From sequence record NC_008720.1: a DNA stretch of 64,000 nucleotides; one strand, 5' to 3'. Source of the stretch: Escherichia phage N4. Position numbers and translations under genes: made by a program. Positions 2,111 to 48,147 of the stretch are shown piece after piece (the first letter of the stretch is position 1; each line of letters opens with the position of its first letter). The notes beneath the pieces are model-generated. The model saw only the letters and a list, made by a program, of their open reading frames with translations. It ran no database searches and had not been told where the DNA came from.

Positions 2111-2939
2111 GTACATTGCAGTAGCAATTGCAGGGCTAATCATTGCTCTAAGTTTAACGAGCTGCTATGACCGAGTTGAACCAGGTAATGTAGGTATTAT
2201 CGTTAACCGTCTCGGTGAAGATAAAGGCGTGGAAAATGAGGTTAAAGGTGTAGGCCGTTACTGGCTCACTTGGAATGAAGAACTTTATACATTCCCGACC
2301 TTTAAGCAGATGAAGACCTATGATGGTCTGTTCTACTTCCAACTGTCTGATGGTACTCAGATAGGCCACCAGATGGCTATCAGCTATAAAGTAAATCCTA
2401 CTAAGGTAACTAATATCTTCCAGACGTATCATAAGGGAGTTAATGAAATTACCGAACAGGATTTACGCCAACGTATTGCTGATGTACTTAACAGGCAGGG
2501 TAACCTGATTAACACCGATACATTTATTGATGGTGGTAAATCTAAGTTACTGGATAGTGTCACGGACACAATCCGTAAAGAGATGGAACCAGTGGGGATT
2601 GATATTATTGCTATCTCCTGGATTGGTGCTCCTGAATACCCTGATAACGTTAAACGTGCCATTAATGCCAAAGTAGAAGCTACTCAGAAAACTCTGCAAC
2701 GTGAGCAAGAGATTCAGCAACGCGTAGCTGAAGCTAATATGGAACGTGAACAAGCTAAGGGTGTAGCAGATGCTATTCTGATTAAGGCTAAAGCAGAGGC
2801 TGATGCTATTCGTTTACGTGGTGAAGCACTCACCGAGAACCCAAATGTAATGCAACTGGAAGCCATTAATAAGTGGAATGGTACATTACCTACCACAATG
2901 ATTCCTGGGGCTACTACACCTTTCGTTAATGTGAAATAA
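2103..2939 (+). CDS. SPFH/band-7 (prohibitin-like) domain lipoprotein
   Basis: N-terminal signal with lipobox LTSC. Core VEPGNVGIIVNRLG... and an Ala/Glu-rich C-terminal helix (IKAKAEADAIRLRGEALTENPNVMQLEAINKW) typical of HflK/C-prohibitin proteins. Confidence 0.6.
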   Translation: MYKYIAVAIAGLIIALSLTSCYDRVEPGNVGIIVNRLGEDKGVENEVKGVGRYWLTWNEELYTFPTFKQMKTYDGLFYFQLSDGTQIGHQMAISYKVNPTKVTNIFQTYHKGVNEITEQDLRQRIADVLNRQGNLINTDTFIDGGKSKLLDSVTDTIRKEMEPVGIDIIAISWIGAPEYPDNVKRAINAKVEATQKTLQREQEIQQRVAEANMEREQAKGVADAILIKAKAEADAIRLRGEALTENPNVMQLEAINKWNGTLPTTMIPGATTPFVNVK

Positions 2940-2945
2940 CTAAGC

Positions 2946-2976
2946 AAACCCACCATTACGGTGGGTTTATTTTTTG
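2946..2976 (+). terminator. Rho-independent terminator
   Basis: AAACCCACC-attac-GGTGGGTTT followed by ATTTTTT. Confidence 0.6.
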
Positions 2977-3001
2977 AAGTTATCTAACACCGGGTATTCC
3001 T

Positions 3002-3226
3002 ATGAAAGTAAATGTTTTACGTCGTAAGAAAGTTCCTTTCTTTCAAATCAATTGTGGTTCATGTTTTCAACACGATGATGACTACTATATGAAGTGTAGT
3101 TATCAATCTAAAGAACACTTCTATGGTGTGAATTTACAAACAGGTCATCTGTTCACATTTGATAATAATGACTTTGTTTATCCTGTGACTTTAGAAGCAT
3201 GTATTCCTGACCCACTTAATAAATAG
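3002..3226 (+). CDS. Hypothetical protein (74 aa, Cys-containing)
   Basis: ORF-track ORF, stop 2 nt before the next gene; contains CGSC...C...C spacing that could be a zinc ribbon. Confidence 0.4.
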   Translation: MKVNVLRRKKVPFFQINCGSCFQHDDDYYMKCSYQSKEHFYGVNLQTGHLFTFDNNDFVYPVTLEACIPDPLNK

Positions 3227-3227
3227 T

Positions 3228-3584
3228 ATGGCTCAAGAAAAGAATCGTCGTCAGACACTTATCGAACGTATTCAGGCCAGAATCAAATTACAGGACTTAG
3301 GCTATACCGTTAATGGTCAGCCTAGTCTCTGTCACATCTGGACTGGTTCACATTCAGGTAATGGACGTGGTGGGCAATATGGCAGGATTTCCGTGAATGG
3401 AGTTACCTCTGCAACTCACATTATTGCCTATACCCATTATCATGGTTATATCCCCAATAAGATGCAAGTAGACCATCTCTGTAATAATCGTCTGTGCTGT
3501 AATCCTGAACATCTTGAATTGGTTACTCACCAAGAGAACCAGAGAAGAAGGGCTAAGCGTTCTAAATCTAAAGGAAATAAATAA
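3228..3584 (+). CDS. HNH homing endonuclease (HNH_3-type)
   Basis: CHIWTG...GYG-like segment, then VDHLCNNRLCCNPEHLELVTHQEN (about nt 3470-3540), a classic HNH_3 catalytic/zinc motif; basic C-terminal tail. Confidence 0.8.
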   Translation: MAQEKNRRQTLIERIQARIKLQDLGYTVNGQPSLCHIWTGSHSGNGRGGQYGRISVNGVTSATHIIAYTHYHGYIPNKMQVDHLCNNRLCCNPEHLELVTHQENQRRRAKRSKSKGNK

Positions 3585-3755
3585 ATGATTAAAAAACTTA
3601 TTTGTAAACTTATTGCAGCAATCTTAATTAGTATTATTGGTATTGCATGGGTAGTTTCTACTCCAGATAACGTTATGCAACAACTTTATTATGCTGTGTA
3701 TACATCAACCTCTTTTGTTTGGGTTTATGTAATGTACCGTATTTGCAGCGACTAA
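3585..3755 (+). CDS. Small hydrophobic protein (56 aa), not in the ORF track
   Basis: ATG 3585 overlaps the HNH stop (TAAATG); SD AAGGAA 8 nt upstream; predicted membrane helix (LIAAILISIIGIAWVV). Confidence 0.35.
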   Translation: MIKKLICKLIAAILISIIGIAWVVSTPDNVMQQLYYAVYTSTSFVWVYVMYRICSD

Positions 3756-3784
3756 TACTTAATATAGCTTAACTGGAGAGTAAA

Positions 3785-4843
3785 ATGGCTAGTATTGATT
3801 CTATTGCCGTATGTAATCCACGGCAGGTACGTAAATTTGTTGAACACTGTATCCGTTCAGGATTGGTTCCATTTATCACTTCATCCCCTGGCATGGGTAA
3901 ATCTGCAATTGTTCATCAGATTGCAGAAGACTTTGGCCTGAAACTGATTGACCATCGTCTGTCTACTTCAGCACCAGAAGACCTGTCAGGTCTGCCTCGT
4001 TTTAAAGAGAATGGCCGTGCTGAATTTGCCCCATTTGATGAGCTATTCCCACTGGAAGGGGATGCTGTACCTGAAGGGTTTAATGGCTGGCTTCTCTTTC
4101 TCGATGAGTTTAACTCTGCTCGTAAAGAGATTCAGGCTGCTGCTTATAAACTGGTACTCGACCGCATGACTGGTCAAAAAAAACTGCATCCTTATGTAGC
4201 TATCATATGTGCTGGTAACAAAGCAACTGACCGTGCCATTACTAACAACCTGTCTACAGCTATGCAATCACGTCTTATTCATCTGGAAATGGAGACTGAT
4301 TTTGATGTCTTCATGGAAGATGTAGCGATTCCTAACAAATGGGATGAACGTGTAATTGCATTCCTGAATGCTAACCCAAATAAACTGAATGATTTTGAAC
4401 CAGACCATCAAGAGAAGACTTTTTGTTGTTCTCGTACATGGGAGTTCGTTAACAAGATTGTTTCCATTCTCCCGCCAGGACCAATTGATAGTGAAATGAC
4501 TCTGCTGTTAGCAGGCACTATCACTTCTGGTGTAGCAACATCATTCGTTCAGTTTACTCAGGTCTATAGCAACATGGTGTCTTTGAATGAGATTTTAGAT
4601 AATCCTAAGAAAGCTCGTATGCCTGAAGACAATAACCTGTTGTGGGCTGTAGTCACTTCACTAATTAACAATACTGACGAAGATAATCATTCGAAAATCT
4701 TTGATTATGTTGAACGTATGCCATTTACGTTCAAGGTTTTGTACTACCGTTCCGTAGGTAGTCTGGTTCCAGCTTTGGTTAAATTACCGAACTGGCGTGT
4801 TGCTGCAATCACATTATCTAAATACGTTCATGGTTCCAATTAA
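3785..4843 (+). CDS. AAA+ ATPase, MoxR-like
   Basis: Walker A SSPGMGKS (nt 3887-3904), Walker B LLFLDEFN, SD GGAGAG; paired with the downstream vWA protein as in MoxR-VWA systems. Confidence 0.75.
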   Translation: MASIDSIAVCNPRQVRKFVEHCIRSGLVPFITSSPGMGKSAIVHQIAEDFGLKLIDHRLSTSAPEDLSGLPRFKENGRAEFAPFDELFPLEGDAVPEGFNGWLLFLDEFNSARKEIQAAAYKLVLDRMTGQKKLHPYVAIICAGNKATDRAITNNLSTAMQSRLIHLEMETDFDVFMEDVAIPNKWDERVIAFLNANPNKLNDFEPDHQEKTFCCSRTWEFVNKIVSILPPGPIDSEMTLLLAGTITSGVATSFVQFTQVYSNMVSLNEILDNPKKARMPEDNNLLWAVVTSLINNTDEDNHSKIFDYVERMPFTFKVLYYRSVGSLVPALVKLPNWRVAAITLSKYVHGSN

Positions 4844-5010
4844 CAAAAAGGGAGTTACAGACCTCCTGTATGTTGCTGGCTTTAACGGTAAAGAAATTAC
4901 CGTATATGCCCCAAGTCTGGCTGCTGCTAAACAAAAGGCAGTTGAATACTTTCGTCCAAAGAAACGTGTAGCCCATACCATTTGGGTTCATCTCGCAGAG
5001 GAAAACTGAT

Positions 5011-6153
5011 ATGTCCATAACAGATGCTCAATTAACCCGTGAATATGACAGATGTCAGGCTAAAGCCTTTATGGGCAAAACTGCTGCATTCTTTGGTTCA
5101 CTGTTATGTTCTCTGAAGTTCCGTTGGGTAAAAGATGGCTGTGATACAGCACAAACCGATGGTGAGCATCTCGAATGGAATCCTGATTGGTTTGAGAGTC
5201 TATTACCTGAATCTCGTGTAACAGTACTCATGCATGAACTATGGCATGTCGGCTTACTGCATTCTGTTCGTATGGGTTCTCGTGACCCAGAAGTATGGAA
5301 TTATGCCTGTGATATTTATATCAACAATCAGCTTATTCAGGATGGCCACAGCTTTATAGGAATCGAAAATTGCTGGAAAGACCCTAAGTATGCTGGTTGG
5401 GCTGAAGAACAAATCTATGATGACCTCATGAGCAAACAGATACGTCCTCCTAAAGCATTTGGTGCTTTTGGGACTGGCTCAGGTGGTGACATGAAACCTT
5501 CCACTTCGAAGGCTAGTCAGGTGAATATTGTCAATAATGTAGTAAGAGCCATGCACCAACAGAAACTATCTGGTGGTTCTTTGCCTGGGGTATTACCTGG
5601 AAAAATGGAAGAAGTTATTACTCAATTCCTGAAACCAGTAGTACCGTGGCAGGTTTTACTTGAACGCTTCTTCAATGACCTGCAAGAAACTTACTACTCA
5701 TGGCAACGGCCTAATCGTAGATACCCTGATATGTACCTACCATCTCCTATGGATGATGACGGTAGACTGGAACATCTGGCTTATTTCCTTGATACATCTG
5801 GCTCCATTAAACCTAAAGATGCCTTACGCTTTAGCTCTGAAGTGGCCTATGTAAAAGAGAAATATCAGCCTCAGAAGATGACTCTAGTTCAGTTCACTAC
5901 AGAGATTGTAGATGAACAAGTCATTGAAGATGGTGACAAGTTTACTGATGTCACTATCAAAGGACGGGGTGGTACTAGTCTGGTTCCTGTACGTGAATGG
6001 ATTATTAAGCATAAGCCTACTGCTGCCATTATCTTTACTGACTTAGAAGTCAGGCCGATGGAACCATTGCCATTTGACATTCCTGTCATATGGGTAGTTA
6101 TTCGTAACCCTGGTGCACAAGTTCCATTTGGGAAAGTTATTAACATTACATGA
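5011..6153 (+). CDS. vWA-domain protein with N-terminal HExxH metallopeptidase-like motif
   Basis: HELWH (nt 5233-5247) and MIDAS-like DTSGS (nt 5791-5805); immediately downstream of the MoxR-like ATPase. Confidence 0.7.
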   Translation: MSITDAQLTREYDRCQAKAFMGKTAAFFGSLLCSLKFRWVKDGCDTAQTDGEHLEWNPDWFESLLPESRVTVLMHELWHVGLLHSVRMGSRDPEVWNYACDIYINNQLIQDGHSFIGIENCWKDPKYAGWAEEQIYDDLMSKQIRPPKAFGAFGTGSGGDMKPSTSKASQVNIVNNVVRAMHQQKLSGGSLPGVLPGKMEEVITQFLKPVVPWQVLLERFFNDLQETYYSWQRPNRRYPDMYLPSPMDDDGRLEHLAYFLDTSGSIKPKDALRFSSEVAYVKEKYQPQKMTLVQFTTEIVDEQVIEDGDKFTDVTIKGRGGTSLVPVREWIIKHKPTAAIIFTDLEVRPMEPLPFDIPVIWVVIRNPGAQVPFGKVINIT

Positions 6154-6159
6154 GGTTTT

Positions 6160-6666
6160 ATGGTTGTTAATGGAAAACTATTGTTAGATGCTATGCCCAT
6201 TAAGGGCATGGTCAACAGTAAACTCAGTTCAGGTGAGACTACATTTGGACTGGGAGAAGCTGGTTATGACATCCGTATTAAACAGGATGTTACCTTCTAC
6301 CGGTTTCTTGGTTTGATTCCCTGCATCAAGATTAAGGATGAAGGAAAGACCAAGTGGAAGTTTGGTACTTTCACATTAGCTTCTGCAATGGAACGTTTCA
6401 ATGTACCTGCTGGCCTAGTAGGTATTGTCCACGACAAATCTACATGGGCAAGGCGTACATTATCTGTATTCAATACTGTTATTGAACCAGGATGGTCTGG
6501 CTATCTGACTTTAGAACTGGTTTATCACGGTCGTAAAAAACTTCATATCCCTGCTGGTTCAGGTATTGCTCAGGTCATCTTCCATGAGACAGTAGAGAAT
6601 ACTGCCTACAATGGGCGATACCAGAACCAGCCTAATCAACCCGTAGCTGCTAAGTCAGCTCGTTAA
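6160..6666 (+). CDS. dCTP deaminase family protein (dUTPase superfamily)
   Basis: GYDIR and ...RRTLSVFNTVIEPGWSGYLTLEL, matching the PGWSG signature region of dCTP deaminase/dUTPase-fold enzymes. Confidence 0.75.
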   Translation: MVVNGKLLLDAMPIKGMVNSKLSSGETTFGLGEAGYDIRIKQDVTFYRFLGLIPCIKIKDEGKTKWKFGTFTLASAMERFNVPAGLVGIVHDKSTWARRTLSVFNTVIEPGWSGYLTLELVYHGRKKLHIPAGSGIAQVIFHETVENTAYNGRYQNQPNQPVAAKSAR

Positions 6667-6679
6667 TTAAGGAAATATC

Positions 6680-6880
6680 ATGTCTATCTTTACTACTAAG
6701 GTTAATGGTCAAAAAGTTACTGTTGTTGCTCGTAACGTAGCTTACGTTACTGAAAACAGTGAAGGCCGTGGTGTAATTACTTTTACTAACGGCGATTCCA
6801 TTGACACCCAGGTAGGTTATGACTCTATCCGTCGTAACGTAGCTAAAGCACTTGATGGTGCTAAAGACGCCGCAGAGTAA
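6680..6880 (+). CDS. Hypothetical protein (66 aa)
   Basis: SD AAGGAA before ATG 6680; terminator downstream. Confidence 0.45.
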   Translation: MSIFTTKVNGQKVTVVARNVAYVTENSEGRGVITFTNGDSIDTQVGYDSIRRNVAKALDGAKDAAE

Positions 6881-6955
6881 GGTGTTTACAGTAATGGGGT
6901 TATATAGTAGCCCCATTTATGGAAATTCCTTTCTCCATTGCTTAGTCCCAACTAT

Positions 6956-6978
6956 GCCCACTTTATGTGGGCTTTTTT
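6956..6978 (+). terminator. Rho-independent terminator
   Basis: GCCCAC-tttat-GTGGGC followed by TTTTTT. Confidence 0.6.
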
Positions 6979-6993
6979 AATTAGAGACTATGT

Positions 6994-7236
6994 ATGAGCA
7001 AATTAGGTATACACGTTTACATAGATGAAGCCGAGAAGATATACCCCTATACATTATTTAGTTCCAGTGATTTACTTCAGATGAAGGTAAACTCCATTAT
7101 CGTAAACTACTGGTATAACGATAAGAATTGGGATTACTGGGCTGCACGACAGAAGAGTAAGAACAAGAAAGATATATTCAAAAGCAAATCAACTCCACAC
7201 ATGTTTCCTTGGTATCACAGAAACCGGAGATATTGA
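6994..7236 (+). CDS. Hypothetical protein (80 aa)
   Basis: ORF-track ORF; stop overlaps the next start (TGATG). Confidence 0.4.
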   Translation: MSKLGIHVYIDEAEKIYPYTLFSSSDLLQMKVNSIIVNYWYNDKNWDYWAARQKSKNKKDIFKSKSTPHMFPWYHRNRRY

Positions 7237-7697
7237 TGACAAGAATACCATTTTTAAAACCCAGAAAACGAACACCAAAGCTGTATCAAAAGACTACAGA
7301 AGACGGTTTAGCCTTGAACCAGAAAGCTATTAAGGCTGTTAGTATACTGGTTCAAGGTAAACAGGATGCTGTTGCTTTACGTCTTGTTGTTGAGCAAATC
7401 TTAGTTGCTCTGACACTGGCTCAGGTAGCTAAACAAGAAGGTAAACAAGAAACCTGTAAAACAGCATTAGGTGCTTTGTACTGGTTGTATAAAGACCTTG
7501 CTGACAACTTTGAAATGTCTATGGATAAGTGGCAGGGTATTTCTTGTGTACTTGCTCTTAGAGAAGGACAGGAATTACTGTCTACTCTACCAAAAGCAGA
7601 ATTTAAACTAGCCTACACTGGAGCACATAAGATTGTTCTTGGTTCCAGTAAGGACATCTTTAACCACCTTAAGCTATTCAAGGCTTTCTATGATTAA
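7236..7697 (+). CDS. Hypothetical protein (153 aa)
   Basis: Track ORF 7209-7697; start moved to ATG 7236 (GGAGA 7 nt upstream, TGATG overlap). Confidence 0.45.
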   Translation: MTRIPFLKPRKRTPKLYQKTTEDGLALNQKAIKAVSILVQGKQDAVALRLVVEQILVALTLAQVAKQEGKQETCKTALGALYWLYKDLADNFEMSMDKWQGISCVLALREGQELLSTLPKAEFKLAYTGAHKIVLGSSKDIFNHLKLFKAFYD

Positions 7698-8631
7698 TGC
7701 AAAAATCCTCGCTGATAGTATTACTCTTTCTGGTGACCGCCTGGTAACAATGGAACTGGTTTATCCACGCTTCATTCATTCAGAATTTATGACTCACCGA
7801 GCACTTAATCGTAATGCTTCCAGTAGTCGTGCTATTCCTACCCAACGCCTTATTGAGCAAGTTCGTAATGAACCAGTAATGCCGGTACATTGGGGTAAGA
7901 ACCAGAAAGGAATGCAGGCAAGTGAAGAACTCACTCCTATGGAAATTAAAGATGCTGAGTTCATTTGGGAAAATGCTGCCTCTGCCGCTGCTGTGTATGC
8001 TGAACAACTTCGTCGTGGACAAGTACATAAGCAGATTGTTAATCGTATTCTGGAACCATTCACGCATATCCGTGTAGTAGTGACAGCTACTCAATGGAAT
8101 AACTTCTTTGGTTTACGCATTCATCCTGATGCTCAACCAGAGATTTGTGAATTGGCTACTAAGATGAAGGAACAGTATGACCAATCAAAACCCCGTACCC
8201 TGTTGGCTGGGGAATGGCATTTGCCGTACATTACTAATAGTGATTATCTCGATGCTTATGATTATTGCAAACATCAACGAATTACTCGTGATGAACCAAG
8301 TAGTGATGAGATTAATTGCCTGTTAGTAAAAATCTCTGCTGCTCGTTGTGCCCGTGCTTCCTATAACAACTTTAAAGGTACTCCTTCTACTATCGAAGAA
8401 GACCTGCGTTTGTTCTCTAAATTGGTTGAAAGTAAGCCTGTTCACGCAAGTCCTACCGAACATCAAGCAACTCCTCAACATGTAATGAGTAAAGGCTTAA
8501 ATGAGCCTACTGACCCATCTACATGGGAAGATGGCATTAGCCACATGGACAGAGATTTACGTCTATACTCAGGTAATCTGTGTGGCTGGATTCAATTCCG
8601 TAAGCTGCTTGCAGATGAATGCATCCACTAA
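7690..8631 (+). CDS. thyX: Flavin-dependent thymidylate synthase
   Basis: Track ORF 7633-8631; start moved to ATG 7690. ThyX-type signature ...FIHSEFMTHRALNRNASSSRAIP (about nt 7792-7835). Confidence 0.75.
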   Translation: MINAKILADSITLSGDRLVTMELVYPRFIHSEFMTHRALNRNASSSRAIPTQRLIEQVRNEPVMPVHWGKNQKGMQASEELTPMEIKDAEFIWENAASAAAVYAEQLRRGQVHKQIVNRILEPFTHIRVVVTATQWNNFFGLRIHPDAQPEICELATKMKEQYDQSKPRTLLAGEWHLPYITNSDYLDAYDYCKHQRITRDEPSSDEINCLLVKISAARCARASYNNFKGTPSTIEEDLRLFSKLVESKPVHASPTEHQATPQHVMSKGLNEPTDPSTWEDGISHMDRDLRLYSGNLCGWIQFRKLLADECIH

Positions 8632-28369: not shown

Positions 28370-31300
28370 TTAGTGAGTAAGGTTGAACCAAGGATTGAGG
28401 GTAGGTGCTCTTAATCCTTGTCCGAAGCCTAATGAGTAATCCAGTCTTCCTTCAGCCAGCATGGTTAGCATGTTGTCCTGAATTGGTAGACCTACGTTAC
28501 CAAACATGGTAGGAGCAGGTACTACTGTAGCAATCAGAGAATGTACTGGGTTGTTTCTAATCATGCTCATAGCAACTTTAATGGAACGAATTTTAAAGTT
28601 GTAGAACCACATCAGACCCATACTTTCCATATAGCCACGGAAACGACCAGGCAATCTGTCATAGTTAATAAACTCTTCAGTTACCTGACCTAATGCTTCA
28701 GAAGAAGATTTTTTCTTACGTTTCACTAAATCATCATAGATGATGGCTTTAGCAATAAAGTCTGAATACTCTACTGTTTTCTGGATACCCTGGAACAGAG
28801 CAGTGTCCTTAGCAATAAGAGCGTAACGGCCAGCATTACGTACTTTTTCTGGAAGTTTATTAGCAAGTTTTTCCATGTACTCATGAATCTTACCTTCAGC
28901 TACTAACAGGTCATCACGACTAATACCAGCATCAGCAATAGAAGAGAACTCACCTGCTTCAATCAAAGGCCAGATACTCATACGACGATGACTATCAGTA
29001 ATAGATTGAATCTCAGTTTTAAGTTTACGAACCAGATTAGGGTTACCTTCAGCAGCACGTAGCTCTGCTTCCGCATCAATCTGACGTAAACGAGATTTAA
29101 TATACTGATTAATCTCTGACGTCTTACGAGGAATGTTCACAGCAATATCTTTAACAGGAACACCACGTCCAATCATCTGGTAGATGTTAGCAAGGAAGTT
29201 AACTGCCGGTACTACAACAGATTTAACAACAATTACTGTCTTAGCGTCCTTCACTAAGTTCTGAATGGTATTTTCAGCATTCATTACTACATGATATGCC
29301 TTATTACCGAATGCACCGAGGAACATCTTCTTAACAGTATCAAGGGTGCTAGGTGACCAACGAGAGTTACCGGTCCACACATCACCAATAGATGCAGCAC
29401 GATAGCCAAGTGCATCATTCAGCATATCCCTACGAACCCATAACTCATCTTTACCGAAGAGTTCTTCGGCCTTATGACGAGTCTCAATGTTCATCAGGTT
29501 AATCGCATCAGCCAGTACTGGGTCATCAATTTTACCTAACAGGTTTACATATTGAGATTTATTAGCACTGGAGTCTTTAATGTCTTTCTCATACATAGCA
29601 TGTAATTGCTCAATGAGAATGTCATTAAAACGTTGTGCTTTAGCCTCTTCCACCTGACGACCACGCCATACACCAACCATCTTAGCAAAGTGATTGTCTT
29701 GGTTTAGGTGCTTCAACATATTAGGGTCAACGGATTGTTCATAAGCAACTACCTGACCTTTGCTGTTATAAATTGGCATCAGTGGTTCACGCCCACGCTC
29801 ACCTTTAGCCAGAGCTTTGGTAATACGCTCTACGGTTGGTTTGTCAGTAATACGCCCAGCAACCATAGTGCCTAACGTAAAGCCAGTACCAATATCCACA
29901 CCACCAGCAGTATTACGAACGTTCTGAAGAATACCCTGAGAGTAAGGGGCACGGGCAGCTACTGGGCTGAAGTAATAACCTTTAGAACCAGTACGGAAAC
30001 CAGTGCTCCCCTGATAAGTACCAATACGAGTAAAGGATTGGCTATTTAACTTAGCAAACTCTTTATCGTCAGCAATAATCAAATTCACACCTTGCTGGTT
30101 CTCTACAGGGATATAGCCTTTAAAGTGATTCAGCAGAGTACGGTTATCACCTTTAGCTTTACGCATCTCTTCAGTACGTTGACCAACCATATAAGCAATG
30201 GAGAACTCCATACCTTCCACTTCTGATTGAGCCAATTCTGACAAAAGGTCACGGTCAGACTTATTCATCAATTCCAGAGAGTACAAAGTAATGAGCTTAT
30301 CAATAGCAGCTACATCTGCCACAGGACCATTAGTAATACGTTCACCTAACAAACGACTAATAGCATGGGCATTACGAAGGAGGTTATTACCTACTTCCCC
30401 CATAATCATGTATTGAGCCAGTTGCTTAGATTTCTTCTGAACCAGATTCCAGTTTCTACCTGCTTGGTTCTGAATCTCTTTTTCCAGAGTAGAGATTTCA
30501 TCTTTCACTTTCTTGGATGAAGAGAGTAAATCTCTAATTTCAGCCATGCTCATAGTTTCACGTAGAACAGCTAAATCTGTTTTACCTAAACCAGTATGCA
30601 TTGCAGACCATTCGGTATCAGTCAATTTACGAGAGAACTTACCAGCAATGACTGTAGGTAAATGCTCACGGAATTGCTGACGGTCTTGAGAAATCTGGCT
30701 CTTAACCAATTTGATTAAGTCATAGACATTGGCATTAGTCTTAGTACGGCCAACAATGTCATTAACTAAGTCATGGAAAGGTTGCCATACTTTACCCTGG
30801 TTCATAGCAGTCATAACACCCTGAGCCACTATTTCACCCTGTTTTTCAGATGCAATAGCAGCAGTCAGTTTAGCCAGATGAGCAACACCTTTAGCAGCTA
30901 TATTAGAAGGGTTAGCAATTACCTTATCTGCCTTCTCAATAACAGTTTCAGATAACCGTTCAATGCTATCCGTTACGTACTGATTAGCACGGTCAATGAA
31001 GTTACCGGTAGGGGTTGCTACAGCATCATAGAAGGACTCTCGTTTCAAAGCAGCAGCCATGATTGTTTCTGACAAAGCATCAATACTGTCCTGAACATTA
31101 GTAGCTTTCTGGTCACCAGCCATACGACGGTTCAGAGATTCCATTACCTGAGTACCTGCATTGGTAAGCAGAGTATCTATATCATTCCCTAATTTCTTAT
31201 CTGCTTTAGGTACAGGCATTTCTTTAATGATTGAACGTAGTTCTTCATTAACCATAGCCAGACCCAGGAATGTAGGTAACAGACTGGTTCTACCTTTGGC

Positions 31301-34300
31301 ATCTACTTCAACCAGATTAGCACCAGAGATGGTGTCATATTTCTGTTGAGCATAGTAACGGTCAGCAGGGTTAGTACTATCAGGGTCAGCCATGAAATGC
31401 TCTACCGTAAGGTGTTTCATTACATGGGTATAAAGTTCCTGAGCACGAGCCATAGCATGTGGGTCAATCGCAGCTTCAGTTGCTAATGCAGCAGTAACCA
31501 TCTGGAATACAGACTGTTCCTGAGCAGTCATATTGAAGCCATGAGACTGAACATCACGAACCAGTCGAGTAGCACTCATTAATGCATTAGCCACATTGCC
31601 ACGACGTTCTACTTCTGTAACTGGGTCAGTACGAAGGTAATCAGTTACCAGTTTATCGAAAGTCTGGTTCAACTGAGACAGACGTTCATTATTACCATAT
31701 GCTTTGCTATGGAACAGTGTGCCATCTTTAGCTACTGCCTGAGTTGTAGGTTGGCTACGCATCAGAATTGCAGAGTTAAACAGCAGATTGGAGAACATAT
31801 CTTCTCCCAATGCAGGAGCTTGTTTACGTCCCCAAATCAATTTCTTAATAGCCTGATAAACATCTTTCACCATTTGAACCAGTGAAGATGTTCTCTTCTG
31901 TTTAGCAGCAAGAGCACGGTTAGCTAACCCCCAAGCCATAAACTCATTAAGAGCAGCAGCTTTAGAGATAGCTGGGTCAACAAATCCATTACTCAAATGA
32001 CCTTCGATAGTTGCAATAGCATCAGCATATGCTTCTCTCATTTCTGGAGAATCTTTGGAAATATCCAGAGAACGGAACTGTTCCATCAGACCTTCAAGGT
32101 TCTCAATAGCCTGCTTAGAAGTAGGGCTTACTTCATTACCCTGATAGAAGGAATAAACTTCCTCGAAGGTAGAGGCATGAACCAGTTCATGAATGAGGGT
32201 TTCCATAGATGGGCTAACCAGATAAATGGTCTTATCATCGAAGTTAGTCCAGCCATAAATATTACCTGCCTGAGCTTCTTCCATTTCCTGAGAAGTCAAT
32301 TCAGTAACATTCTTCTGACGAGCATACTCTGCAACCTGAGTAGGTGTACCGTAGATAATCTTATAGTCTTTAGCTGCCAGTGATTTCTGAATCTCCGCAA
32401 GAGTAGCTGCCTGAGTAGATGGCAGATTACTAATCTTAGCCAGATTACGAATAGCAGTAGCAGACAGGATACGAACACCAGATGCCTTATGCTCACGGCC
32501 TACCATACCAAAGTCTGGATTCACTGGTTCTTTTTCAGAAACAGTTTCTTCTTTGACTTCAGCCCTAGCCTTAGCGACTTTTTGTTTACGGGCTTCTAAC
32601 TCTTCACGGAAAAGTTTATTCAGTTCATCAGCCTGTTGTTCAGGGGTCATATTGCTGAGGTCAATCTTACCGTTGTTCTGATAAGGAGCACCTACAGCAG
32701 CCATCTGGTCAATGGACAGATTTACCTTATCCAGCACCTTATGACGAATATCTACACCCAGTGCAATATTACGTAAGTTACGTTCAATCAGAGATGCAGC
32801 GTTAGCAATATCATCTACAGTAGCATTCTCACGTTGGTCATATTCCAGAGCAGATTTACCAATTGCTTCCAATGCTTCAGGGGACAGCTTGCTGAAATCT
32901 ACATTCTTCATGAACTTAGCATATGATTCATAAACATTCTTAATAGGGTTACCCTGCCAAGAAGTGTAAACAGCTTCATTAGCTTTACGACTGGCATCAG
33001 TGATGTCATTCAAACCAATGTTCATACCATCAAAGATTTTGAGGGTATTCTTTGGTGCACCTTTCATAGTGGAAAGAGTTTGCATCATCATGCCATCACC
33101 AGTACCAATAGTCATAAATGGAATACCTGCTACACCGGCCTGTGCTGGAGCATAGATACTCATTGGTACACGCATACGGTCATCAAGGTTAGTAGCTAAT
33201 ACCTGATTTGCTACTTCTGCATTTTCTGAACCAGCAATGTAGAAAGTCTGAGAACCAGTCTCAATCATAGGGGCTAAGTTATTCAGAGAAGCCTGAATAT
33301 CATTCAGTTCTTTCTGAGTAAGGAAATCACCTTTCTTCCATGTTGGGTCTTTAGCCTTCTCTGCCAGCTTCTCTTGTACTCGCTGTTTGAACATATCTTC
33401 CAGCACTACAGATTGAATCTGAGTAGCTTTCTGTAATTGTTCAGTAGAGTACACCAGACTTTCACCTACAGTCTGAGTAATACCATTACGTAGTGGTTCT
33501 ACAAAGAAGTGCAGCATATTTTCCTGAAGTGCCTTCAGTTGCTCGCCCTTAATGGTATAGGTCTTAGGATTGATTTTTCCTTTGGCTCCTGTACCTGTGG
33601 ATTGTAGTTCCAGTACACCTTTACGTTTAACAGGAACAGTAGAAGTCAGTGTTTCCATATCTTTCAGGAAACGGGCAAGAAGTTCTTCAGCATGTGCTTC
33701 TGAAGCAGCTTGCTTACCAAACATTGCCATAGCAGCAGAGATATTTGGGTCTTTAGCACGAGCTTTCAGTACATCAGACATACGCTCATAGATGGCATCA
33801 GTAACAGAACTAACCAGCTTACCTGCAATACCACGAGCACCAGAACCATAGATGGTAATAGTCAGTGGGTTCTTAGCAATACCACGTTTAAGTTCTAAAG
33901 CACCATTCTCACCAAGATTAATATCCGGTAAAAACAAATCCATCAGAGAAAGAAGACTGTCTATCTGAGACTGAATAGGCATATTAGAGGCATAGTTACT
34001 ACGTAACTTACCCAACGATTCCATCAAAGCATTAGTGGATGCTTGATATAAATCATTATTGTCAGCAGTAGAGCGATGCTCATTCATGGTCTTATTTGGA
34101 GAACCAATGAACAAGCCCCCTTTGGCAATATTACGAATCCAGTCAGGAGTAAACAGACCGCCTGTCATTAGCATCATGGCATTGATTGGACCATTAGTAA
34201 CACCATCTGCTTCTACATACAGTGGAGTTACAAATGCAGATTTATCCTCTGCTACTAAGTAACGGGAATACTCCATAAGAGCCATCAATGCTACGAATGA

Positions 34301-37300
34301 CTTCCTATCTCCTAATGCTGTATTCAGAACATCAACTGCGTTTTCTGGTAAGGAACCAGTGGTATTAAACTCAACCATCATATCAATGGCTGGTTTCAGA
34401 TTACCTTCCAGTAATTTAGTCAACTCGTCAGACATAACCTCACGAGTCATAGTATGGACTTTAATGTCCAATGCCTGAGCCAGACCTAACTGGAATGCAG
34501 AGAAGTCTTCATTGTTCTGGTTCGATAAATCCAAAGTAGCTTTAGTAGGTAAGATGGCCTCACGAACCAGTTTGGCTGATTGAGGATTGTATTTACCTAA
34601 CATCTGCATACGACCAACACGGGTCATATTGTATGCATAGTGAATAGGTACAGTAGAGATGTCTTCGCTCTGTGCTCTTACCTGCTCAATGACGGAGAAC
34701 AGTTGGTTGTAAGAGTCCTCTACTGAACGGTTCTTACCTTCCAGAGATTTAGCATGGTTATCATTAAGTAACTCTTTATTCAGAGTACCAGCACCCATCA
34801 GTTCGAGAATACGGTCTTTACCTAACGTCTCATAGAATTGAACCATTGGGGTGTGTACATAGAACTCTGTAGCCTGCTCTGCTTTCAATGCAGCCTTCTG
34901 TTCTGGAGTATTACGAACAGCAGGGTTACGAAGCTGAGTATTAGCTACAGGAGGAATGTCATCACCAAAGAACATCTTCTCTGTAGGATTCACTAAAACA
35001 GCTTCTTCAATAGCAGTAGGGAAGCTATTAATTGGGTCGAAGGAATCCAGTTCAGTAATGGTGTACAGACCAATAGTCTTCTTGTTATCTGGGTCAATTT
35101 CTGACATATCCACGATGTTCTCTACAACATCAGTAGACTCTACAAATGCAGCCAGAATTTCAGCAGCCATTGCTGTAGGGATGCCTTTGGTATAGCCCAA
35201 TGGAGCATTTGGATTACGAGATAATCCCCAGTAAGACTCAATTTTCTGAGCCAGGGAACTAACTGCTTCAGTGAGTGTCATACCAGTATCAAATTGCTCT
35301 ACTAAACCTTCTGGCAGCAGAGCTTGGTCAATACCAGTAATAGCAGCAACATCTTTTGCATCTTTGATAGCAGTATTGCTGGTAGCAGTAAGTCTCCATT
35401 GAAGACCTGCTAATACAGCAGTCTGTAGCAATTGTTCGTTGTACTTAAAGGTATCCCCATCCTGCTCAACAATGTTAAGTAACTTACCACCTACCCAACG
35501 GTTGGCTTCTGTACCTTGAGCAAAACGTTTACCAACATCCTTAGTGTTAAGGAACTTAGCCAGACGGGAGCGAAGAATATCAGCAATACCTTCCCCATGT
35601 TCCATGAGTTCTTTGTATCGCTTAATAACTTCCCCATTAAAAGCAGGGTTAGCAGTTTCTTTCTCAGTAAAGAGTTCATAACGAGCACGAGAAGACAGAG
35701 CTTGGGCTACATCTTTTAGAGGTGCTTCTGAACCAACAGTACGGGATTTCTGTTCTTCTGGTAAGGTAAAGGACAATTTGAAATAGTTCTTAATACCCTC
35801 TGCTTTAGAATCAGCAGTACCTACCAATGAAGGGTAAACAGCATCAATACCTTCTTTTAATTCTTCTGTAACTGTACTTTCTTTTGTAGAAGTTTCAGTT
35901 TCTTTAACAGATTCAGTAGGTTGCTTGATGTTGTCCTCATTAGTAAGGTTAACATCCTGTTTTTCAGACTGGTTCACAGGTTCTTTTATAGCCTGTGGGC
36001 TAGACTCTTTAGTAGTAGGTTCTGTTTTAACAGATTCACTAACAGGAGTCTTAGTCTGTACAGTAGATGTAACTGGTTCCTGTTTTGTAACAGGAGTTTC
36101 TTTAACCTGATTCACGGAGTCAGCTTTCGGTTGAGAAGAAGCAACGTCTCGATTGCCTTGACGGAATGCCTTGACCACCTCAGCAGCAGGAGCGTTAAGA
36201 CGTGAATCCAATGGAGTAACTTTTATATGACTGACCTTCAGTTCCGGGTAAGCCGAAGCGAGGGCATTAGCAATATCCGCTACCGTTTTCGCTTCAAGAG
36301 CAACTTGCTGGGCAAATTTAACCGACTTAGTGTCATAGGGATTGACCCCCAATCCGGTACGGCTACGAACCCATTCTCTGTCAGCAGTAAGAGCTTGGTA
36401 GTGGACAGACTTATTCTTATCCGCATTCCCCGTAACAAGATGCTCATTCAACGCTCCAACCTTATTCTGCATGTGCTGGGCGAACTGCATAAAGTCGTTC
36501 AGGTAAGCGGAGGCCAACTCGAAATTACCAGAGTTATACGCAGACCGAATCCTATTCGCATGTTGCAACGCAGAGTATTGTCCTTCCTGAGTTCTGCTCT
36601 CATCCGTTTTAATCTGTTTACTCACAATGTCTTGAGGACGTAATCCAAGACGGGCAGCTTCTGCATCATATTCCCGTGCCCCCTTCAGGATTGCAGCAGC
36701 ATTCTGGAGGGCAGCAATCTGGCGATTATTCAGTTTAATACGACCATCAGCAGCATGTTTAAGAACAACATTTACAGACTCTGGATTGAGCTTTTCAGGG
36801 GCTACTTCAGCAGCTAATGCTACGTTCTGCATTTCCTGTGGACTGGATTCTTCAGTCACATTCAAAGAACCATTCTGAGCAGATTCATTAATCATTCGAT
36901 TAATAACATTCAGTGCACCAATTACTTTTGGTGTGTTCTGAATATTAGCTGTCAGATTCGTATAACGGTTGAGTAACTCAATAGCCGGAGAATCTTTAGG
37001 AATGCTATCCAGTGCAGCAGGGTCACGGTTAATGAACTGCTCAAACTCTGAAACAGCATCATACATATAAGATGCAGCTTCCATCAGTGCTTGAGGATTA
37101 GATTCATCTAATGTGTTAACTAAGTCTGCTAACTTCTGAATAACCTGTACTTGGTCAGTAGAACCAGCTACAGCATTACGAATATGCTCTGGTGCTTCCT
37201 GATAATTTTCAGGATTAAAACGAGTAGCATTCATTAAGTCAGAAACATACTGGTGTGCTGCAACTTTCTGTTCTGGAGTAGCATCAGTTGCTTCAACAGC

Positions 37301-46929: not shown

Positions 46930-48147
46930 TTATAGGCCGTTCAGCCGAGGTAGTTTCATAAAGTCCTCGTCACTCATTGCAAGAGGATTAACAAGGACTT
47001 CTGTCTTACGCGGTGTAACCCGTGATGGGGATGCCGCTGCTGCCTGTTGAGTATTAGTGATTTCAGACTTAGGCGTTGCAACACGAGTTGCTACTGGCTG
47101 AACCACTGGCTTAGGTTGTTCAACAGGTTTCTGCTTAATCAAATCGTTAAAACCACCATTAGCAGCAAGGTAGTTACCGACTTGATTATAAGCATCCAGG
47201 AATGCTGTACCGATTGGGATTTGGCCTAAGATTTTGAGTCGTTCAATTTCAGAAACAATACGGTCGTAAATACCGTTAGCTTTCTGTTCAACGATGGTAT
47301 TAACCAGACCACGGTTTTCCAGCAATGCCTGTTTGCTGTGGTCATCCCACGTAGTCGAAATTAACTGAAGAGTAGCTTGTCCTTCTGGAGTGGATTTAGC
47401 ATCTTCCAGTTCGGTTGCAAATGCTGCTTCAGCATCTGACACACGGTGATTACCAGCTTGGTATTTAACTTCCTCTTCTGGATTAATATCCAGAACATCA
47501 ATACCAGATTCTTTAATCAACTTCTTAATAGCATCAGGATTCCCTTTAACTAAGTCGATAGCATAAGAGAGTTGCCCTTCATCTAATAATCCGTTGTTTT
47601 CTAACATCAGGAGATACTTACGATACGGCTGAATCTCCTGCATTTTACGGGTATAGTTAGCTCCCATTTGCATCAAGCTAATGACCTCTTCAGGACTCTG
47701 AGGAGTAATCATTTTGCCGTTAGCTTTAAACGGAGCCATTATCCGTTCATAACCAGCCTTATAGTCGAAGTCAGTTTTCTGGTCTGATACCTGCTTGTCT
47801 TCTTCTACTTTTGCTTGGCCTTGCTCAGTAGTAGAAGATGCATTATCAGTAGCAGGCTTACTGTTGCTGTCAACCTTATTTGGGTCAACTGTAGCACTAT
47901 CATTACCAGTTGTGAATGCATCTGAATTGCTTTCTGATTCAGAAGTATTTTCTACTTCAGTTGGTTCAGTAGTTACTTCTGTTTCATCAGTTTGTTCAAC
48001 TTCAACAATTGGGTCTGGTTGTGCAGGAGTATTATTTTCTACCGGTTCCGGGTTGTTCTGAATGCTTGTTGGACCAGGCATGTTCAGAATCTCTTCATCC
48101 GACATTTTAAAAATGTCGGAAGCTGTTTTTGCAGCTTCCGTAGTCAT
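46930..48147 (-). CDS. Putative scaffolding protein (N4 gp57 position), 405 aa
   Basis: ATG 48147 with SD GGAG; highly acidic low-complexity N-terminal third (Glu/Thr/Ser/Asp-rich); immediately upstream of the capsid gene. Confidence 0.4.
   Translation of the reverse strand: MTTEAAKTASDIFKMSDEEILNMPGPTSIQNNPEPVENNTPAQPDPIVEVEQTDETEVTTEPTEVENTSESESNSDAFTTGNDSATVDPNKVDSNSKPATDNASSTTEQGQAKVEEDKQVSDQKTDFDYKAGYERIMAPFKANGKMITPQSPEEVISLMQMGANYTRKMQEIQPYRKYLLMLENNGLLDEGQLSYAIDLVKGNPDAIKKLIKESGIDVLDINPEEEVKYQAGNHRVSDAEAAFATELEDAKSTPEGQATLQLISTTWDDHSKQALLENRGLVNTIVEQKANGIYDRIVSEIERLKILGQIPIGTAFLDAYNQVGNYLAANGGFNDLIKQKPVEQPKPVVQPVATRVATPKSEITNTQQAAAASPSRVTPRKTEVLVNPLAMSDEDFMKLPRLNGL

Follow-up and report, generated by a model that had tools for sequence, protein, structure and literature searches.

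The genes gp24 and gp25 of Escherichia phage N4 are genes of the core set in N4-like phages (Schitoviridae) to which no function has been assigned (PMC4193335, PMC2784036, PMC7650795), and they have been listed since 2009 as encoding a putative AAA ATPase and a von Willebrand factor A (vWFA, or vWA) protein, respectively (PMC2784036). In published tables, gp24 appears as "unknown," "putative ATPase, AAA superfamily," or "AAA+ ATPase" and gp25 as "vWFA domain" or simply "gp25," with the peptidase unmentioned; a gp25 peptidase is named only in some GenBank records, as "putative metalloprotease" in AL25 and "metallopeptidase" in Pollock. The same architecture, a MoxR AAA+ ATPase and a vWA protein with an N-terminal metallopeptidase domain, has been described in the group 2.2 jumbo phages (Iyer et al. 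2021, PMC7824862), where the pair is framed as a jumbo-phage feature for virion assembly; the 70-kb N4-like phages and the plasmid and bacterial relatives are not discussed there. We analyzed this pair in a stretch of 64,000 nucleotides from the phage N4 record NC_008720.1 (here called the window). The two genes are effectively those of N4 gp24 (YP_950502, AAA+ ATPase) and gp25 (YP_950503, vWFA protein), with no substantive difference, and we propose that their products make up a two-part, ATP-driven machine that would remodel, and then cleave, a target protein.

Several other described systems resemble this pair in part. For CbbQ-CbbO and NorQ-NorD the sequence likeness is at the fold level only. 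CbbO and NorD, which lack a peptidase domain, activate enzymes without cleaving them. Midasin (Rea1) is a single chain of 5000 residues that contains six fused AAA modules and a C-terminal metal ion-dependent adhesion site (MIDAS), has no peptidase, and acts in ribosome assembly, in contrast to the two separate proteins gp24 and gp25. FtsH shares with the pair the outline of an AAA+ motor combined with a zincin HExxH site. However, FtsH has a classical-clade AAA module in one membrane-anchored chain with its M41 protease and threads substrate through the ring into a protease chamber, whereas in the arrangement proposed here the protease would sit on a separate adaptor with a MIDAS grip.

In our proposal, gp24, a MoxR-class AAA+ protein, would form the hexameric ring expected from its relatives, and gp25 would be its dedicated adaptor, like CbbO, NorD, or the MIDAS domain of midasin, with one gp25 docked per ring. 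A metal ion held by the MIDAS of the gp25 vWA domain would grip an acidic residue of the client protein, ATP hydrolysis by the ring would pull on or loosen the client, and the exposed chain would be cut by the zincin domain at the gp25 N terminus, which has the motif HExxHxxxxH and is related to M48 peptidases and minigluzincins. A physical interaction between gp24 and gp25 is predicted from CbbQO and NorQD, and the 6:1 complex, the peptidase activity, and the coupling of the parts are likewise predicted by analogy with CbbQ-CbbO, NorQ-NorD, and midasin. We regard this molecular mechanism as probable. The proposal draws on computed results for the identities of the domains, the intactness of the catalytic and MIDAS residues, the conserved gene order, and the single transcription unit.

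Both open reading frames (ORFs) lie on the + strand at exactly the coordinates that the original prediction, made from the sequence alone, had given for them (Table 1). That prediction had described the downstream protein as a DUF2201-type metallopeptidase with a VWA domain, and gp25 matches both Pfam models above their thresholds and in that order: DUF2201_N ("putative metallopeptidase domain," residues 10 to 245; E = 3e-87, 293.1 bits against a threshold of 23.2) and DUF2201 ("VWA-like domain," residues 256 to 380; E = 1e-46, 158.1 bits against a threshold of 26.4). The protein also matches phrog_1314 (E = 1e-135) and is 99% identical to the Enquatrovirus gp25 cluster. As had been claimed, the HELWH motif (residues 75 to 79) lies upstream of the MIDAS residues (261 to 265, T322, and D344). 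The residues H75, E76, H79, H84, D101, D261, S263, S265, T322, and D344 are invariant across 27 schitoviruses, and the zincin and MIDAS residues are conserved in 16 distant homologues from jumbo phages, a cyanophage, plasmids, and bacteria, all 16 of which keep HExxHxxxxH and NxAxD. From these alignments, H84 is a candidate third zinc ligand; the Asp that replaces it in one representative could still be a metal ligand. An HExxH motif would be expected by chance about 0.01 times in a protein of gp25 composition, and in these alignments it is the conservation of the motif, not this chance expectation, that gives it decisive support.

We also compared the N-terminal domain with known structures, using a profile built on residues 20 to 145 of 14 distant homologues. 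All 14 matches of this profile in the Protein Data Bank (PDB) were zincin metallopeptidases, with the best scores for MJ1213/selecase (E = 3e-5), the M48 peptidase 3c37 (1.9e-4), BepA (0.02), and an HtpX homologue (0.035) and weaker matches, up to an E value of 0.5, for projannalysin, Ste24, glutamyl aminopeptidase, and proabylysin. The alignments span the strands before the active-site helix plus the HExxH motif, so that the M48 family (HtpX, BepA, and Ste24) and the minigluzincins (selecase, projannalysin, and proabylysin) align with gp25 over β-strand, helix, and HExxH at E values of 3e-5 to 0.5. gp25 differs from both groups in its HExxHxxxxH and NxAxD motifs, its lack of membrane segments, and its fused vWA domain; gluzincins typically use a downstream Glu ligand, and gp25 differs from them in this respect. 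PDB searches with the single gp24 and gp25 sequences returned spurious hydrolases only, and a schitovirus-only gp25 profile had no PDB match; only the profiles of distant homologues gave matches. Sub-threshold Pfam matches to Peptidase_M48 and Peptidase_M78 were found among gp25 homologues. In the AlphaFold2 model of gp25, three β-strands precede the HExxH helix (residues 66 to 81), an order compatible with a zincin fold, and the C-terminal half adopts an α/β Rossmann-like vWA fold whose structural relatives in a fold search include the vWA domains of NorD and BchD. The possibility that the HExxH region is not a peptidase fold, which had been raised with the original prediction, is argued against by the uniformly zincin profile matches and the intact catalytic residues. 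By these sequence comparisons, the N-terminal region of gp25 is a peptidase-type domain with its catalytic residues intact, and we infer that the protein is proteolytic.

The gp25 family (phrog_1314) is widely labeled "HNH endonuclease" or "homing endonuclease" in PHROGs and GenBank (RaK2, MAG4, pVa5, Deifobo, RiverRider, and others). This is a mislabel: Pfam finds no HNH domain in the family, and the name seems to have spread from early BLAST annotation.

An alignment of 27 schitovirus homologues of gp24 shows little or no variation at the Walker A residues, the Walker B pair D107-E108, N145, R163, and R217. The same catalytic residues are invariant in 12 distant homologues except for S40 and E108, each of which is kept in at least 90% of them. 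R163, which aligns with the midasin "nRF" segment, is a candidate arginine finger, and R217 is a candidate sensor-2 arginine by comparison with the MoxR "GASPR" motif. The conserved segment IDHRLSTSAPEDLSGLP aligns with the "Rinlse.tD..DLfG" segments of midasin and is conserved also in the bacterial MoxR partners described below. The protein matches phrog_1297 ("ATPase") at an E value of 2e-136, and a family profile of the 12 distant members (phage, plasmid, and bacterial) matches Midasin at 2.7e-26, with the next AAA group at 2e-11. The structures nearest to the gp24 model are CbbQ, dynein AAA modules, NorQ, and Midasin, which are members of the MoxR/midasin/dynein clade with helix-2 and pre-sensor-1 β-hairpin inserts. 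In addition, gp24 is a full-length homologue of the plasmid and bacterial ATPases encoded upstream of DUF2201 genes (25 to 31% identity, with E values of 1e-28 to 1e-36 in a small database). Four of these bacterial ATPases are named "MoxR family ATPase" by the Prokaryotic Genome Annotation Pipeline (PGAP), and the bacterial gp24 orthologues clear the Pfam AAA_5 threshold with 33 to 47 bits. Together, the profile and alignment data support the placement of gp24 in the MoxR/midasin/dynein (AAA_5) clade of AAA+ proteins.

The original prediction had assigned the two genes to the MoxR-VWA architecture, and this is borne out by their co-occurrence in the same order and on the same strand over many phage lineages, plasmids, and at least five bacterial phyla. 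By tblastn, gp25 homologues are present in 678 phage records and gp24 homologues in 830, and gp25 has matches in approximately 14,000 protein clusters made at 50% identity. An ATPase gene that precedes the peptidase-vWA gene on one strand, next to it or no more than about 1.5 kb away, is found in Gamaleyavirus IME11, Litunavirus MAG4, roseophage EE36phi1, several Vibrio schitoviruses, Acinetobacter phage Presley, Agrobacterium phage Atu_ph07, jumbo coliphage CRJP21, Klebsiella phage RaK2, and cyanophage S-TIM61. The ATPase gene is directly upstream of the gp25 homologue in IME11, RaK2, S-TIM61, Atu_ph07, CRJP21, and several Vibrio schitoviruses, and one small ORF separates the two in EE36phi1 and MAG4. 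Identities to gp24 and gp25, respectively, are 62 and 60% in IME11, 40 and 29% in MAG4, 31 and 27% in EE36phi1, and 31 and 27% in S-TIM61. The gp25 homologues of the jumbo phages RaK2, UE-S1, CRJP21, 7t3, and Atu_ph07 match at E values of 1e-11 to 1e-19, with a gp24-like ATPase gene beside them, and the words "similar to N4 Gp24" stand in the RaK2 record. In Escherichia phage MaxTheCat, which has a Vequintavirus gp25 homologue, the upstream gene (locus positions 2424 to 3401) is annotated "anti-sigma factor" and encodes a very acidic protein of 325 amino acids. This Vequintavirus gene was rejected as an ATPase partner because it has no similarity to gp24; the Vequintavirus MoxR-like ATPase lies about 4 kb from the gp25 homologue, on the other strand (JEP1 coordinates).

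Homologues of gp25 also occur in 76 plasmid records, 30 of which are predicted to be conjugative. On Burkholderia, Cupriavidus, and Rhodovastum plasmids, the ATPase gene is followed by one for a conserved protein of about 300 amino acids, which has no Pfam match, and then by the DUF2201 gene. One plasmid module adjoins type IV secretion genes, and another adjoins toprim/DUF3991 primase-like, ParB-family, and zeta toxin genes. A PGAP-named "MoxR family ATPase" gene immediately precedes the DUF2201 gene on Synechocystis plasmid pSYSA, where the gene context includes toxin-antitoxin and other conflict genes, on a Thermus oshimai plasmid, and on Nostoc and Miltoncostaea plasmids. A scan with one genome per species gave 139 further relatives of this cyanobacterial/Thermus clade, of which 80 were kept; a homologue search seeded with the cyanophage protein was filled up by marine cyanophages, with no bacteria among its matches. 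The bacterial loci come from Cyanobacteria, Deinococcota, Chloroflexota, and Armatimonadota, and some are on multi-megabase chromosomes; no virion genes were found around the chromosomal loci. Of the 70 bacterial loci for which at least 1.3 kb of upstream DNA was available, 62 have a MoxR homologue upstream. For 58 loci the available upstream DNA reached 3.5 kb or more, and 32 of these also encode an LRV/HEAT-repeat protein (Pfam LRV, E = 4e-24), either before the ATPase gene or between it and the DUF2201 gene, and in 17 bacterial loci a pentapeptide-repeat protein then follows. The LRV/HEAT accompaniment of MoxR and DUF2201 is frequent in Cyanobacteria, Chloroflexota, and Thermaceae, and we found no description of this ternary arrangement. 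Judged by these homologies, the phage pair appears to be a cut-down form of a module that bacteria and mobile elements commonly carry.

The vWA-MoxR-VMAP ternary conflict systems (PMC7159879) have a MoxR and vWA core that is sometimes joined by a peptidase, HEAT-repeat, pentapeptide-repeat, or Band7 partner, and the LRV/HEAT-repeat and pentapeptide-repeat proteins that often stand beside the bacterial gp25 relatives are like these partners. The peptidase of the VMAP systems is usually trypsin- or caspase-like and often inactive, whereas that of gp25 is of the zincin type. One bacterial ATPase has a bpMoxR match, at sub-threshold level only. Because no VMAP protein is encoded around gp24 and gp25 in the window, and no such recurrent third gene was found in the 80 bacterial loci, we do not count the phage pair as a member of the VMAP ternary systems.

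In the window, gp24 and gp25 lie within one transcription unit that extends from gp21 to gp27 between two terminator-like hairpins, and both are middle-phase genes in N4 (PMC4193335). They are encoded on the + strand, distant from the late structural block on the − strand. The region is approximately 98% identical at the nucleotide level to Enquatrovirus (Schitoviridae) genomes, including those of Escherichia phages OLB145, PMBT57, vB_Eco_Jura, and AL25. Both genes carry gp24 and gp25 homologue labels in the related Enquatrovirus records, and the order gp23-gp24-small ORF-gp25-dCTP deaminase is common to the window and these genomes. The genes around the pair encode, by Pfam and PHROGs, an SPFH/Band-7 lipoprotein (gp20), an HNH endonuclease (gp22), dCTP deaminase (gp26), ThyX (gp30), rIIA, and rIIB, and gp23, the neighbor of gp24, has 56 amino acids. 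The deaminase, ThyX, endonuclease, and rIIA/B neighbors fit the nucleotide-metabolism/replication module in which the pair had been placed, and on the whole the interpretation given in the original prediction is supported.

The small ORF between gp24 and gp25 overlaps the end of gp24 by 14 nucleotides, and its stop codon lies 1 nucleotide ahead of the gp25 ATG, a spacing that suggests translational coupling. The PMBT57, AL25, and Jura records list its product as a hypothetical protein. We considered it as a conserved third component and dropped this idea because the same slot holds unrelated ORFs in other schitoviruses (42 amino acids in EE36phi1 and 172 in MAG4) or is empty (IME11), and because the small ORF is unrelated to the middle protein of the plasmid modules; its 59-amino-acid product is probably accessory.

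Within about 3 kb downstream of the pair, Enquatrovirinae, the roseophage, RaK2, and the cyanomyovirus have a thymidylate synthase gene (ThyX or Td), often together with one for dCTP/dCMP deaminase. Thymidylate synthase was rejected as an obligatory neighbor, since four lineages have it and Litunavirus, pVa5, plasmids, and bacteria do not; its proximity may reflect shared expression timing only.

Table 1. Coordinates of gp24, gp25, their conserved residues, and associated features (window positions unless locus coordinates are indicated)
Feature	Position	Strand	Basis or remark
gp24, MoxR-class AAA+ ATPase, 352 aa	3785..4843	+	ORF, motifs, and profiles
Walker A (P-loop) SSPGMGKS, K39/S40	3881..3904	+	K39 and S40 invariant in 27 homologues; K39 also in 12 distant homologues
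Conserved segment IDHRLSTSAPEDLSGLP, residues 55-71, MoxR/midasin-type insert after helix 2	3947..3997	+	Nearly invariant in 27 homologues
Walker B D107-E108 (LFLDE)	4103..4108	+	Alignments of 27 and 12 homologues
Sensor-1 Asn145 (AGN)	4217..4219	+	Invariant in 27 close and 12 distant homologues
Arg163, candidate arginine finger (...SR...)	4271..4273	+	Invariant in 27 and 12 homologues; aligns with midasin nRF
Arg217 in (S/C)PR(S/T)W motif, candidate sensor-2 arginine of lid domain	4433..4435	+	Invariant in 27 and 12 homologues
Small ORF between gp24 and gp25, 59 aa	4830..5009	+	phrog_19202, E = 1.5e-33
gp25, zincin-peptidase and vWA/MIDAS protein, 380 aa	5011..6153	+	Pfam, PHROGs
DUF2201_N region, residues 10-245	5038..5745	+	Pfam; zincin core at residues ~20-145, then lower-confidence helical linker with conserved RPNRR motif
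HELWH, H75 E76 H79, predicted two zinc ligands and catalytic Glu	5233..5247	+	Residues 75-79; no variation among the homologues compared
H84, candidate third zinc ligand (HExxHxxxxH)	5260..5262	+	Invariant in alignments; Asp in one representative
D101 in invariant N-x-A-x-D-x-x-x-N motif, candidate metal ligand or support	5311..5313	+	Homologue alignments
VWA-like domain, residues 256-380	5776..6150	+	Pfam DUF2201
MIDAS motif D261-T-S263-G-S265 (DTSGS, residues 261-265)	5791..5805	+	Homologue alignments
MIDAS Thr322 (GGT)	5974..5976	+	Homologue alignments
MIDAS Asp344 (FTD)	6040..6042	+	Homologue alignments
Terminator-like hairpin ending the preceding unit, upstream boundary of the gp21-gp27 unit	2946..2968	+	Matches annotated terminators of Jura and AL25
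Terminator-like hairpin, downstream boundary of the unit with gp24, gp25, and dCTP deaminase	6956..6972	+	Matches annotated terminators of related genomes
dCTP deaminase	6160-6666		Neighbor downstream of gp25
ThyX	7633-8631		Neighbor downstream of gp25
Thymidylate synthase/deaminase stretches in other phage loci	6698-7627; 6133-6804; 5562-6984; 4155-7085 (locus coordinates)		
Three-gene plasmid modules	3889-7158 (Burkholderia); 3946-7176 (Rhodovastum); 3939-7161 (Cupriavidus) (locus coordinates)		
Example LRV-region loci	976-2727; 3033-3923 (locus coordinates)		

Other genes of the window drew our attention apart from the pair. gp20 (2103 to 2939, +) belongs to the SPFH/Band-7 proteins (Pfam E = 1e-23) and carries a lipoprotein-type signal (...LSLTSC) at its N terminus; it is named "serine protease" in one relative, a name to which its domain content gives no support. 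Band-7 proteins are among the partners of vWA-MoxR conflict systems (PMC7159879), yet gp20 is parted from gp24 by a terminator and three genes. gp22 (3228 to 3584, +), two genes upstream of gp24 in the same unit, is an intact HNH_3 homing-type endonuclease (Pfam E = 9e-20). Its homologue is flagged as a pseudogene in phage Jura, where another HNH gene splits RNAP1 from RNAP2, and these two observations suggest that mobile endonucleases are turning over around the gp22 region. The cumulative GC skew has its maximum near 28 kb, at the switch from + strand (early/middle) to − strand (late) coding, and the late − strand genes begin with the virion RNA polymerase ORF (3506 amino acids; 28370 to 38890, −). 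The gp57 homologue (46930 to 48147, −), located between the portal and major capsid protein genes, is labeled "tail length tape measure protein" by PHROGs, which is odd for a short-tailed phage; its position is the usual place of a scaffolding protein.

As for what the machine would act on, we lean toward a host protein or an element-encoded nonvirion protein met during the establishment of replication, rather than a virion protein, because the related modules occur on plasmids and chromosomes and because the phage pair stands among replication and nucleotide-metabolism genes instead of in the late structural block. The bacterial contexts, with toxin-antitoxin and conflict genes on pSYSA and repeat proteins like those of the vWA-MoxR conflict systems (PMC7159879), also argue against a role confined to virions. 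A role in the establishment of replication or in host takeover is thus a tentative assignment, for which we have a slight preference over virion maturation. With this leaning on role included, we hold the proposed machine to be the best explanation of the data as a whole, with a confidence somewhat better than even.

The alternative that survives best is a virion-assembly chaperone combined with a maturation protease, in which the MoxR-vWA pair would fold or assemble structural proteins and the fused peptidase would trim them. This is the role that the jumbo-phage study proposed for the group 2.2 architecture, drawing a parallel to Acidianus two-tailed virus (ATV; PMC7824862), whose MoxR protein p618 and vWA protein p892 provide a precedent (PMC7824862; PMC7159879). 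The surroundings of the pair in some phages fit such a role and count against the nonvirion target that we prefer: virion structural genes directly precede the pair in RaK2, Hsp20 is encoded upstream and a virion structural protein downstream in S-TIM61, and a "second structural module" adjoins the gp24/25 homologues in roseophages (PMC4193335). The pair is also a core gene set alongside the structural core, and PHROGs recognized no head-maturation or prohead protease family among the portal-to-capsid genes of the window, but this absence is weak evidence, since many podoviruses need no head protease. In contrast, homologous modules are found on conjugative and non-mobilizable plasmids and on chromosomes, none of which make virions, and in the window the pair belongs to a middle-gene, + strand unit with dCTP deaminase and ThyX for company, far from the late genes. 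We consider the virion-assembly explanation unlikely, if far from negligible.

We think it very improbable that the pair acts as a metal-cofactor or enzyme-activation chaperone without proteolysis, as NorQ-NorD, CoxD-CoxE, CbbQ-CbbO, and the chelatase pairs do, with HExxH binding or delivering metal and a phage metallo- or nucleotide-metabolism enzyme, for example one in the deoxynucleoside triphosphate synthesis module, as the client. Such remodelers are the nearest structural relatives of both proteins (CbbQ and NorQ for gp24, and the NorD and BchD vWA domains for gp25), and the four lineages with a thymidylate synthase or dCTP/dCMP deaminase gene downstream (Enquatrovirus with Gamaleyavirus, EE36phi1, RaK2, and S-TIM61) would offer candidate clients. 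However, HExxH keeps its catalytic Glu without exception in a domain that shares ancestry with true peptidases (M48 and selecase), no requirement of ThyX or dCTP deaminase for an inserted metal center is known, and the Litunavirus, pVa5, plasmid, and bacterial loci do without these neighbors. That a generic AAA+ ATPase and a stand-alone peptidase/adhesion-like protein are merely side by side without functional coupling, as the tight packing of phage genomes, the small ORF between them, the Pfam scores of gp24, and the separated genes of some phages might suggest, is hardly credible given that order and strand recur so widely, including in the 62 bacterial loci, and that the divergences of gp24 and gp25 track together lineage by lineage.

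Other observations weigh against parts of the reading that we favor, a remodeling protease with a nonvirion client. By itself, gp24 falls just under the Pfam gathering scores (20.9 against 21.2 for AAA and 20.4 against 22 for AAA_5). The Walker B motif of the Burkholderia plasmid ATPase is D-D rather than D-E, so that fast ATP hydrolysis need not be a property of every family member. In the AlphaFold2 model, the gp25 linker (residues 150 to 250) is of low confidence, and two fold searches with the whole gp25 model were filled with vWA domains and silent on the N-terminal domain. The two genes are 3 to 4 kb apart in Vequintavirus and Deifobo. Strict core-gene status and 50 to 60% identity across schitovirus genera are unusual for an anti-host or anti-defense function and fit a housekeeping role; an anti-defense function is disfavored because this strict conservation points to a conserved client. 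No match to gp24, gp25, or the small ORF was found in the PADLOC-DB defense models or in NCBIfam, and PADLOC on the bacterial and plasmid homologues gave weak, P-loop-level matches to IetA only; no protein of the pair fits a known defense or anti-defense model. Our literature search found no experiment on gp24 or gp25 and no functional study of DUF2201, of COG3864, or of MoxR in Schitoviridae; N4 is not among the data of the CRISPRi-ART paper, and a Schitoviridae structure paper has nothing on capsid processing.

A bolder version of our proposal is that gp24-gp25 is the minimal phage form of a widespread split AAA+ protease family of mobile elements and bacteria, composed of a MoxR ring and a zincin-vWA adaptor. 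In this version the phage form would cut a conserved, MIDAS-selected host protein to establish replication or disarm the host. The assignment to virion assembly in the literature would then be mistaken, and the ternary arrangement of bacteria would amount to a new conflict system. We view this combination of claims as doubtful.

The pair was already known at the sequence level, as annotated genes and Pfam families and through the published jumbo-phage architecture (PMC7824862). Three results are modestly new: the explicit connection of the gp25 N-terminal domain with M48 peptidases and minigluzincins, the strong midasin-type signal given by the ATPase family, and the ternary relatives on plasmids and in bacteria, which have a bearing on the function guessed in the literature. 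Our analysis thus bears out the existing annotation, connects the phage pair with relatives on plasmids and in bacteria, and makes a virion-only reading weaker. gp24 and gp25 are among the approximately 14 genes common to all N4-like phages. Because these phages serve as candidates for therapy directed at Pseudomonas, Klebsiella, Achromobacter, and E. coli, the lack of an explanation for one of their core functions is a genuine gap. The module is also very common and extends to jumbo phages and cyanophages, to conjugative plasmids, and to several bacterial phyla. If the pair is an ATP-driven protease aimed by its MIDAS, it would represent a further AAA+ protease design beside FtsH, Lon, and Clp, and the identity of its substrate would shed light either on the maturation of these phages or on their takeover of the cell.

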